From assembly GCF_000026545.1 (NCBI RefSeq), contig NC_011601.1: a stretch of DNA of 64,000 nt. One strand, given 5' to 3'. A program made the position numbers. Origin of the DNA: Escherichia coli O127:H6 str. E2348/69. GTDB taxonomy: Bacteria > Pseudomonadota > Gammaproteobacteria > Enterobacterales > Enterobacteriaceae. This document shows positions 9,001 to 12,000 of the stretch, piece after piece. Numbering within the stretch: the stretch's first letter is position 1; every line of letters starts with the position of its first letter.

Positions 9001-12000
9001 TCTACCCGATGTGGCATCTGGAAGTGGAAAGCCTGCTGGTGTTGAAAAACAACCGTGGTGTGGAAGGCAACCGCGTGCGTCATATGGACTACGGGGTTCA
9101 AATCAACAAACTGATGTATACCCGTCTGCTGAAAGGTGAAGATATCACTCTGTTCAGCCCGTCCGACGTACCGGGGCTGTACGACGCGTTCTTCGCCGAT
9201 CAGGAAGAGTTTGAACGTCTGTATACCAAATATGAGAAAGACGACAGCATCCGCAAGCAGCGTGTGAAAGCCGTTGAGCTGTTCTCGCTGATGATGCAGG
9301 AACGTGCATCTACCGGTCGTATCTATATTCAGAACGTTGACCACTGTAATACCCATAGCCCGTTTGATCCGGCCATCGCGCCAGTGCGCCAGTCTAACCT
9401 GTGCCTGGAAATCGCCCTGCCGACCAAACCGCTGAACGACGTCAACGACGAGAACGGTGAAATCGCGCTGTGTACGCTGTCTGCTTTCAACCTGGGCGCA
9501 ATTAACAGCCTGGATGAACTGGAAGAGCTGGCAATTCTGGCAGTACGCGCACTCGACGCGCTGCTGGATTATCAGGATTACCCGATCCCGGCCGCCAAAC
9601 GTGGAGCGATGGGTCGTCGTACGCTGGGTATTGGTGTGATCAACTTCGCTTACTACCTGGCGAAGCACGGTAAACGCTACTCCGACGGCAGCGCCAACAA
9701 CCTGACGCATAAAACCTTCGAAGCCATTCAGTATTATCTGCTGAAAGCGTCTAATGAGCTGGCGAAAGAGCAAGGCGCGTGCCCGTGGTTTAACGAAACC
9801 ACTTACGCGAAAGGGATCCTGCCGATCGATACCTATAAGAAAGATCTGGATGCCATCGCTAATGAGCCGCTGCATTACGACTGGGAAGCACTGCGTGAGT
9901 CAATCAAAACGCACGGCCTGCGTAACTCCACGCTTTCTGCCCTGATGCCGTCCGAGACTTCTTCGCAGATCTCTAACGCCACTAACGGTATTGAACCGCC
10001 GCGCGGTTACGTCAGCATCAAAGCGTCGAAAGACGGTATTCTGCGCCAGGTGGTGCCGGACTACGAGCATCTGCACGACGCCTATGAGCTGCTGTGGGAA
10101 ATGCCGGGTAACGATGGCTACCTGCAACTGGTGGGTATCATGCAGAAATTTATCGATCAGTCGATCTCTGCTAACACCAACTACGATCCGTCACGTTTCC
10201 CGTCAGGAAAAGTGCCGATGCAACAGTTGCTGAAAGACCTGCTCACCGCCTACAAATTCGGGGTCAAAACGCTGTATTATCAGAACACCCGTGACGGCGC
10301 AGAAGACGCGCAGGACGATCTGGTGCCGTCAATCCAGGACGATGGCTGCGAAAGCGGCGCATGTAAGATCTGATATTGTGATGCCGGATGCGGCGTGAGC
10401 GCCCTACCCGGCCTACGGCTCCAATTTGTAGGCCGGATAAGCGAAGCGCATCCGGCACTGAATGCCCAGATGCGGCATGAACGCCCTACCCAGCCTACGA
10501 TGCGGTTTGTAGGCCGGATAAGCGAAGCGCATCCGGCATAAAACTCCTAACAGGACACATTCATGGCATATACCACCTTTTCACAGACGAAAAATGATCA
10601 GCTCAAAGAACCAATGTTCTTTGGTCAGCCGGTCAACGTGGCTCGCTACGATCAGCAAAAATATGACATCTTCGAAAAGCTGATCGAAAAGCAGCTCTCT
10701 TTCTTCTGGCGTCCGGAAGAAGTTGACGTCTCCCGCGACCGTATCGATTACCAGGCACTGCCTGAACACGAAAAACACATCTTTATCAGTAACCTGAAAT
10801 ATCAGACGCTGCTGGATTCCATTCAGGGTCGCAGTCCGAACGTGGCACTGCTGCCGCTGATCTCGATCCCGGAACTGGAAACCTGGGTAGAAACCTGGGC
10901 GTTCTCAGAAACGATTCATTCCCGCTCCTATACCCATATCATCCGTAATATCGTTAACGATCCGTCTGTTGTGTTTGACGATATCGTCACTAACGAGCAG
11001 ATCCAGAAACGTGCGGAAGGGATCTCCAGCTACTACGATGAACTGATCGAAATGACCAGCTACTGGCATCTGCTGGGCGAAGGCACCCACACCGTTAACG
11101 GTAAAACCGTAACCGTTAGCCTGCGCGAGCTGAAGAAAAAACTGTATCTCTGCCTGATGAGCGTTAACGCGCTGGAAGCGATCCGTTTCTACGTCAGCTT
11201 TGCCTGCTCTTTCGCATTCGCTGAACGTGAGCTGATGGAAGGTAACGCCAAAATTATTCGCCTGATTGCCCGCGACGAAGCCCTGCACCTGACCGGCACC
11301 CAGCATATGCTGAATCTGCTGCGCAGCGGCGCGGATGATCCGGAGATGGCGGAAATTGCCGAAGAATGTAAGCAGGAGTGCTATGACCTGTTTGTCCAGG
11401 CGGCACAGCAAGAGAAAGACTGGGCGGATTATCTGTTCCGTGATGGTTCGATGATTGGTCTGAATAAAGACATCCTCTGCCAGTACGTTGAATACATCAC
11501 CAATATCCGTATGCAGGCAGTCGGTTTGGATCTGCCGTTCCAGACGCGCTCCAACCCGATCCCGTGGATCAACACCTGGCTGGTGTCTGATAACGTGCAG
11601 GTTGCTCCGCAGGAAGTGGAAGTCAGTTCTTATCTGGTCGGGCAGATTGACGCGGAAGTGGACACCGACGATTTGAGTAACTTCCAGCTCTGATGGCCCG
11701 CGTTACCCTGCGCATTACTGGCACACAACTGCTGTGCCAGGATGAACACCCTTCCCTTCTGGCGGCGCTGGAATCCCACAATGTGGCGGTTGAGTACCAG
11801 TGCCGCGAAGGTTACTGCGGCTCCTGTCGCACCCGACTGGTCGCAGGCCAGGTGGACTGGATTGCCGAACCATTAGCTTTTATTCAGCCGGGGGAAATTT
11901 TGCCCTGTTGTTGCCGGGCAAAAGGCGATATTGAAATCGAGATGTGAATTGGTTTTAACGCCAGATACGACGCTTATACGTCTTATCTGGCCTACAACGA

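Follow-up and report, generated by a model that had tools for sequence, protein, structure and literature searches.

A four-unit REP array between nrdA and nrdB of Escherichia coli E2348/69, a lineage-specific variant of a known REP cluster

The spacer that separates nrdA from nrdB in Escherichia coli O127:H6 str. E2348/69 carries four REP units in alternating orientation. The array is an ordinary lineage-specific variant of the REP cluster at a locus that has already been studied in K-12, and as such it is already known. We consider its most likely function to be a lowering of NrdA translation, the effect described for the K-12 allele, and hold this reading with moderate confidence. All coordinates given below are those of the window, which is the entire 64,000-nucleotide stretch of DNA that was analyzed.

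Results

The nrdA-nrdB-yfaE locus

Both subunits of class Ia ribonucleotide reductase are encoded in the window, followed by the operon's last gene, yfaE (Table 1). In the spacer region the sequence agrees with that of E. coli E2348/69 at 100% identity. The nrdA reading frame closes with a TGA codon at 10371-10373, and at the other end of the spacer the AGGA Shine-Dalgarno sequence lies 7 nt upstream of the nrdB ATG, in a tail whose ACAGGAC motif is common to most of the Enterobacteriaceae spacers listed.

Scans for promoter and terminator consensus sequences revealed no sigma-70-like promoter in the spacer, and no hairpin followed by a T-run that would indicate an intrinsic terminator there; the last REP unit, R4, is followed by ATAAAACTCC. 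This lack of both promoter and terminator matches fits read-through into nrdB. An internal nrdB promoter in the spacer is thus unsupported, and the identity of a Rho-independent terminator was likewise rejected, as the spacer has no GC-rich hairpin directly before a T-run. Two open reading frames called mechanically across the array (10395-10541 on the plus strand and 10264-10458 on the minus strand) were dismissed because they are made of REP sequence and because the length of the array varies among strains. The K-12 micro-ORF yoaM was also set aside as a part of the feature, since it is broken off after five codons in the E2348/69 window.

Table 1. Features of the nrdA-nrdB-yfaE region in window coordinates
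Feature	Position	Strand	Basis and remarks
nrdA, class Ia ribonucleotide reductase alpha subunit, 761 aa	8088..10373	+	ORF list; NCBIfam NF006578, 1643 bits, full length
nrdA-nrdB intergenic spacer, 189 bp	10374..10562	+	Between the two ORFs
REP unit R1, y-type, CTAC-ending orientation	10383..10416	+	y-type pattern, 1 mismatch; folds alone at -16.4 kcal/mol
REP unit R2, inverted relative to R1, GTAG start	10428..10457	+	Repeat comparison; folds alone at -14.4 kcal/mol
REP unit R3, decayed copy of R1, 88% identity to R1	about 10463..10499	+	Repeat comparison; folds alone at only -4.4 kcal/mol
REP unit R4, exact copy of R2 (100%), GTAG start	10509..10538	+	Repeat comparison; folds alone at -14.4 kcal/mol
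Non-REP tail of the spacer with nrdB Shine-Dalgarno AGGA (10552-10555)	10541..10562	+	Sequence
nrdB, class Ia ribonucleotide reductase beta subunit, 376 aa	10563..11693	+	NCBIfam NF006576, 807 bits, full length
yfaE, ferredoxin-like RNR maintenance protein, last gene of the operon	11693..11947	+	NCBIfam NF007985, full length

Anatomy and folding of the four units

An initial annotation had proposed that four REP units are packed between the two genes. The proposal is borne out: units R1 to R4 alternate in orientation, with R3 degenerate, and they form two tandem pairs of 81/82 bp that extend over 10381-10540 (start-to-start distance also 81/82 bp). The same annotation took the whole 189-bp spacer to be REP/BIME sequence. 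Its assignment to this class stands, but its extent does not, since REP/BIME sequence accounts for only ~160 of the 189 bp (~85%), and the 7 nt right after the nrdA stop and the final 22 nt are non-REP.

A pattern for y-type REPs has two matches in the window, one of them R1 and the other at 3592-3625, compared with none in 100 shuffles. The first stem base of R1 is at 10383, such that 9 nt lie between the stem and the nrdA TGA codon, which ends at 10373. The R1 stem includes two internal mismatches and adopts the fold (((((.((.((((....)))).)).))))). R2 has a short, z1-like loop but a y-like CCGGAT stem, and in R3 the sequence CCGG is changed to CCAG in both stem arms. The conserved tetranucleotides are in place in both pairs, with GTAG at 10428 and 10509 and CTAC at 10413 and 10495.

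Predicted folds of the array are very stable. R1 and R2 together could form a 79-nt hairpin of -43.8 kcal/mol, and the whole array is predicted to fold at -79.9 kcal/mol. For RNA spanning 10360-10580 the predicted value is -85.2 kcal/mol, which corresponds to a z score of -4.15 relative to dinucleotide shuffles.

The array as an atypical BIME

The elements in the spacer are E. coli REP palindromes. E. coli REPs are defined by a conserved tetranucleotide at the stem foot, GTAG on one strand and CTAC on the other (PMC3333891), and these feet are present here. R1, R2 and R4 are imperfect palindromes of 30-40 nt with a stem-loop, whereas R3 has decayed from this form, and mismatched bases occur within the stem, as seen in the R1 fold. 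The sequences are also dispersed, multi-copy and extragenic. All REP copies seen lie between genes, and 5086 of 5426 E. coli genomes carry an exact match to the R2 33-mer elsewhere in the genome. This is far more than have it at nrdAB and shows that the unit belongs to a dispersed REP family.

Like the BIME families, the array alternates REPs with inverted REPs, has GTAG/CTAC feet and short linkers, and repeats its pairs in tandem. In BIME-1, which is present in single copy, one z1 and one y unit are joined by a long L linker, usually with an IHF site in it; BIME-2 repeats pairs of z2 (long-loop) and y units in tandem, and atypical BIMEs are chimeric, combining different REP types and linkers in several copies (PMC3333891). 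BIME-1 (and RIP) can be ruled out, because the linkers are only ~11 nt long, the IHF consensus WATCAANNNNTTR is absent from both strands of the spacer, linkers included, and there are two tandem pairs. BIME-2 can be ruled out because R2 and R4 have the short centre GCGAAGCGC and there is no z2 unit; the z2 centre GACGCGCCAGCGTC is present in the K-12 allele, and a z2 centre also occurs at window positions 3544-3576. As the array is neither BIME-1 nor BIME-2, we place it by exclusion as an atypical BIME, composed of two tandem pairs that each join a y-type REP to an inverted short-loop REP, the first pair being intact and the second having a decayed y unit. The consensus sequences used for the z1, z2 and y calls follow the Gilson/Bachellier nomenclature.

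No curated RNA family applies to the spacer in an Rfam scan of 7400-12400 (E <= 1). The scan returned two minus-strand matches to naRNA4 (RF02564), of 34.8 and 32.0 bits; membership was rejected because both fall below the gathering score of 59.5, and the matches reflect general REP similarity only. A single snoRNA match in the same scan was put down to chance.

REP copy number varies from none to five in E. coli

The initial annotation called for a comparison of REP copy number among strains, and such a comparison reveals variation from 0 to 5 units within E. coli. The nrdA and nrdB flanks match in all but one of 5426 complete genomes; it is the spacer itself that differs. There are at least nine alleles, of eight lengths, holding 0, 1, 2, 3, 4 or 5 REPs. 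The shortest spacer, of 65 bp, has one REP (L129), and the 88-bp spacer has none, carrying instead another palindromic element, CCGTCCCCTCTCCC-CTTGC-GGGAGAGGGGACGG (L004). Two REPs, forming one pair of the window's type, make up a 108-bp spacer (L003), three REPs a 146-bp spacer (L007 and L008) and four the 189-bp spacer of the E2348/69 window. Five REPs are present in spacers of 226 bp (O157), 233 bp (K-12) and 241 bp (strain B). The sole REP of the 65-bp allele consists of the 5' half of the first K-12 REP and the 3' half of the last. Gains and losses of BIME copies between strains arise by recombination between units.

The REP-free allele is carried by 1684 of the 5426 genomes (31%), and the junction specific to the four-REP allele by 280 (5.2%). 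In an evenly spaced sample of ranked genomes, five REPs account for roughly 44%, three for roughly 18% and two for roughly 3%. Carriers of the four-REP allele include, besides E2348/69, the strains CFT073, Nissle 1917, ATCC 25922, NC101 and NRG 857C, which belong to phylogroup B2.

All REP alleles sampled open with TATTG(A/T)GAT, followed by the stem start GCCGGATG in every case except L008, which has point changes in the first stem arm. Because the alleles share this start, the distance from the first REP to the stop codon is kept while copy number varies. The REP-free allele also has a predicted hairpin, of -31 to -37 kcal/mol, whose core begins 24 nt past the nrdA stop. The CCTCTCCC...GGGAGAGG element has no copy within the 64-kb window.

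A stable hairpin follows nrdA in most Enterobacterales

To compare species, we searched species-representative genomes with a degenerate pattern built on the NrdA C-terminus. It yielded 120 loci, in 116 of which nrdB follows within 900 nt. Spacers in these 116 species range from 42 to 240 bp, with a median of 83.5 bp. They are more stably folded than dinucleotide shuffles in most cases, with z <= -2 in 92 of the 116 species and a median z of -3.2.

A hairpin of -8 kcal/mol within reach of the stop codon was found in 91% of species and in 60% of shuffled sequences, a cut-off that is too lenient, and the test was therefore rerun at -12 and -15 kcal/mol. With the threshold at -12 kcal/mol or better, 96 of 116 species (83%) have a single hairpin whose start lies within 15 nt of the nrdA stop, compared with 113 of 348 shuffled spacers (32%; Fisher p = 1e-21). 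The corresponding counts at -15 kcal/mol are 89 of 116 and 58 of 348. Since the controls are shuffles and not other intergenic regions, these figures reveal structure and its position, not function.

The hairpins that follow nrdA belong to unrelated sequence families in different groups. By a rough regular-expression sort, in which Pseudocitrobacter faecalis fell in the simple-hairpin class, about 76 of the 116 spacers have simple GC hairpins, 29 have REP pairs of their own genome's REP type (Citrobacter, Klebsiella, Raoultella, Salmonella arizonae, Pseudescherichia and E. albertii), five have single REP-like units, and about six have a CCCTCTCCC/GGGAGAGGG element that is also present in the 88-bp E. 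coli allele. T-rich sequence often follows the simple hairpin in Kosakonia, Enterobacter, Buttiauxella and Cedecea. A stable stem directly behind nrdA thus recurs in this spacer, and REPs are one way to supply it.

Discussion

Ribosome stalling at the nrdA stop codon

The function that we favor concerns the termination of nrdA translation. According to PMC12306157, a REP that lies no more than 15 nt downstream of a stop codon causes the terminating ribosome to stall, induces trans-translation and reduces translation of the gene before it; the nrdAB transcript is cited there as the previously reported case. The mechanism is summarized as ribosome stalling followed by trans-translation in PMC5082802, and both later papers (PMC12306157, PMC5082802) treat the nrdAB REP of K-12 as the published example of REPs at such distances. 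With 9 nt between the TGA codon and its stem, R1 falls within the limit of fewer than 16 nt that distinguishes translation-regulating REPs. It is this defining geometry that makes reduced NrdA translation the function we consider most likely, and we infer that the K-12 effect would apply to the E2348/69 allele. The K-12 cluster between nrdA and nrdB served as the model locus in Liang, Rudd and Deutscher (2015; Mol Cell 58:431), and the effect on nrdAB was reportedly partly reversed by RNA helicase overexpression and overcome after UV stress.

The array is transcribed within the nrdA-nrdB-yfaE mRNA and is predicted to form very stable hairpins from 9 nt past the nrdA stop. If this mechanism operates in E2348/69, a ribosome positioned at the stop codon would meet the REP stem and stall, the stalled mRNA would be cleaved, and tmRNA would rescue the ribosome, with less NrdA as the outcome. 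Translation of nrdB would proceed independently, from its own putatively unstructured ribosome-binding site in the 22 nt downstream of the array. In this way the array would set the ratio of alpha to beta subunits post-transcriptionally. Ribonucleotide reductase sets the dNTP supply, and because both of its subunits are made from one mRNA without translational coupling, an intergenic element is a plausible control point. As a secondary effect, the array may also hold back 3' exonucleases or terminate transcription in part.

Some observations bear on the strength and generality of the effect. The first hairpin that reaches -12 kcal/mol or better has a predicted stability of -15.6 kcal/mol in the window versus -23.9 kcal/mol in K-12, and because R1 is the weaker of the two, stalling may have a smaller effect in E2348/69. 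The REP-free spacers, in which the core hairpin is 24 nt from the stop, indicate that a REP at the R1 position is dispensable. It also counts against the stalling explanation that the model gives R2, R3 and R4 no role.

Alternative explanations

It is possible, though in our estimation not probable, that the array serves as an mRNA stabilizer, a partial terminator, or both, with REP hairpins blocking 3'-to-5' exonucleases or causing attenuation that is partly Rho-dependent, such that the nrdA segment outlasts or outnumbers the nrdB segment; this could coexist with stalling. Protection of nrdA mRNA from exonucleases is a generic idea and a plausible one. The high predicted stability of the first pair and of the entire array is consistent with it, as are the intrinsic terminator-like spacers of Kosakonia, Enterobacter, Buttiauxella and Cedecea, in which T-rich sequence follows the hairpin. 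Against this stand the absence of a T-run after any REP in the E2348/69 spacer, where the terminator scan was empty, and the consideration that NrdA and NrdB work together as a complex, so that a large bias toward upstream mRNA would not be obviously useful.

Evidence from other REP loci falls on both sides of the stabilizer explanation. In a recent preprint (bioRxiv 10.64898/2026.03.23.713779), REP325 in yjdMN both stabilizes upstream mRNA and limits read-through, and tandem gene pairs of K-12 that are separated by REPs have a median log ratio of upstream to downstream expression of 0.96, versus -0.09 for controls. These data uphold the initial annotation in its more general claim that REPs within operons can shift the relative expression of neighboring genes. 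However, the same preprint states that terminal REPs are not generally tied to longer mRNA half-lives (bioRxiv 10.64898/2026.03.23.713779). For nrdAB itself the mechanism reported is stalling, whose expected outcome is less NrdA and not a protected nrdA transcript, and the interpretation in the initial annotation agrees only in part with what is reported for this operon.

We are more doubtful that the array is a selfish or neutral passenger, in which case the spacer would simply tolerate REPs, copy number would drift by recombination and any effects on expression would be incidental. The coexistence in E. coli of at least nine alleles with 0 to 5 REPs, the large number of genomes with no REP at the spacer and the decay of R3 all agree with such a view, as does the fact that BIME copy number at one locus differs between strains (PMC3333891). 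These points must be set against the stable stop-proximal hairpin in about 83-91% of the 116 species, which is far above the frequency in shuffles whatever sequence supplies it. Moreover, the start of R1 is constant relative to the stop codon across the REP alleles sampled, and even the REP-free allele retains a strong hairpin.

A role at the level of DNA rather than RNA, with the array acting as a binding site for gyrase, IHF or DNA polymerase I or as a nucleoid-organizing element, is very improbable: although gyrase cleavage sites are over-represented in BIME-2 and favor y-type REPs (PMC6379681), and BIME-1 linkers often contain an IHF site (PMC3333891), this allele has no z2 REP and so is not BIME-2, its 11-nt linkers have no IHF consensus on either strand, its naRNA4 matches are sub-threshold, neither REP325 nor naRNA4 produced nucleoid compaction according to the preprint (bioRxiv 10.64898/2026.03.23.713779), and most other genera have a hairpin at this position that is not a REP.

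Significance

The finding adds little in itself, because the array is a textbook REP/BIME and its K-12 counterpart is already an experimental model. What is added here is the allele series of 0 to 5 REPs across E. coli and the stop-proximal hairpin in 116 Enterobacterales species; both are useful for the design of tests, and neither is a discovery in its own right. The practical value lies in a natural experiment: E. coli lineages carry anywhere between zero and five REPs at this one spacer, yet their proteins are nearly identical. Such a series is well suited to telling apart the mechanisms by which REPs may act, namely translational stalling, mRNA protection and attenuation.

A broader and only tentative idea is that what selection maintains in Enterobacterales may be a stable hairpin beginning no more than ~15 nt past the nrdA stop, and not REPs as such. 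The hairpin would then be a post-transcriptional valve on the alpha to beta ratio, and its slot would have been refilled in different lineages with simple terminator-like hairpins, with the lineage's own REP family or with the CCCTCTCCC/GGGAGAGGG element. If this is true, the series of 0 to 5 REPs would represent standing variation in how the valve is set, which might influence dNTP supply and the DNA damage response.

Comparison with known systems

The closest relative of the array is the K-12 nrdAB REP cluster, which occupies the same locus between the same flanks. Both alleles open with TATTG(A/T)GATGCCGGATG and close with the ACAGGAC ribosome-binding region, and in both the first y-type REP is equally far from the nrdA stop. 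The K-12 spacer, however, is 233 bp long and has five REPs of the y and long-loop z2 types, making it a BIME-2. In contrast, the window has 189 bp and four REPs, its inverted units have a short, z1-like loop with a y-like stem, one of its y units has decayed, and R1 has one extra stem mismatch.

REP325 of the yjdMN operon and other REPs within operons, such as that of malE-malF, resemble the window array in being placed between co-transcribed genes and in being able to bias expression toward the upstream gene. They differ in the effects involved, which are mRNA stabilization and partial termination, whereas the effect reported for nrdAB is lowered upstream translation. The GC hairpins in the nrdA-nrdB spacers of other Enterobacterales have the same arrangement as the window array, directly after the nrdA stop and before a conserved nrdB ribosome-binding site, and are of similar stability. 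Unlike the array, these hairpins are single-copy and non-repetitive, are often followed by T-rich sequence, lie in spacers of about 50-60 bp and do not belong to the REP family.

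REP sequences shared with Citrobacter and elsewhere in the window

The distal REP of the nrdA-nrdB spacer in Citrobacter youngae (locus L057) and C. amalonaticus (locus L113) is identical or nearly identical to R2 and R4, the inverted short-loop units of the window spacer, with the common sequence GTAGGCCGGATAAGCGAAGCGC(C)ATCCGGCA. Because of this match, REP pairs of the type found in the window spacer may be older than the y/z2 arrangement of K-12. Elsewhere in the window are a canonical z2 and y pair and a degenerate REP (GCCAGATACGACGCTTATACGTCTTATCTGGCCTAC), the latter matching the naRNA4 family weakly at 27 bits. 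The micro-ORF yoaM, annotated in K-12 as an 11-amino-acid product (MSVSCWEFNAG), is shortened in the window, where a stop follows five codons (MNVSC).

Coordinates of features in the window and in compared sequences
Feature	Sequence	Coordinates	Strand	Position or counterpart
z2 and y REP pair (BIME-2 unit)	Window	3544-3625		Directly downstream of yfaL/ehaC
yfaL/ehaC, autotransporter adhesin gene	Window	3648-7412	minus	
yoaM counterpart	Window	10529-10564	minus	Overlaps nrdB start codon on opposite strand
Degenerate REP	Window	11959-11998		Between convergent genes yfaE and inaA
REP-free allele (example)	L004, E. coli DA33135	401-488		Counterpart of window 10374-10562
Annotated nrdB, 5' end	NZ_AP027545.1, E. 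coli LR-48 plasmid (111,667 bp)	101778-101932		

The nrdA-nrdB junction in other genera and on a plasmid

The spacers of Kosakonia, Enterobacter, Buttiauxella and Cedecea are only 51-59 bp long (loci L058, L075, L009, L112, L069 and L039) and are made up of a GC-rich hairpin with T-rich sequence behind it, which together look like an intrinsic terminator. The corresponding position in E. coli is the interior of the operon.

Outside Enterobacterales, a NrdA C-terminus of the enterobacterial type with an adjoining nrdB is present at loci L043 and L086 (Oxalobacter formigenes) and L127 (a metagenome-assembled genome labeled 'Pseudomonas sp.'). The L127 spacer carries a REP similar to that of Leclercia, and for this reason the contig is probably mis-binned. 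The genes in Oxalobacter could reflect gene transfer. On the E. coli LR-48 plasmid, the 5' end of the annotated nrdB is 78% identical to chromosomal nrdB over the 155 bp matched.

A REP-free allele in E. coli

An 88-bp nrdA-nrdB spacer that lacks REP sequences is carried by 1684 of 5426 complete E. coli genomes (31%). This spacer contains a palindromic element, CCGTCCCCTCTCCC-CTTGC-GGGAGAGGGGACGG, followed by GTGAGGGG, and related elements occupy the spacers of Pluralibacter, Pseudocitrobacter and Phytobacter. Each E. coli genome has one to four sites matching the palindrome in all, and the element seems to resemble the 'boxC' repeat.
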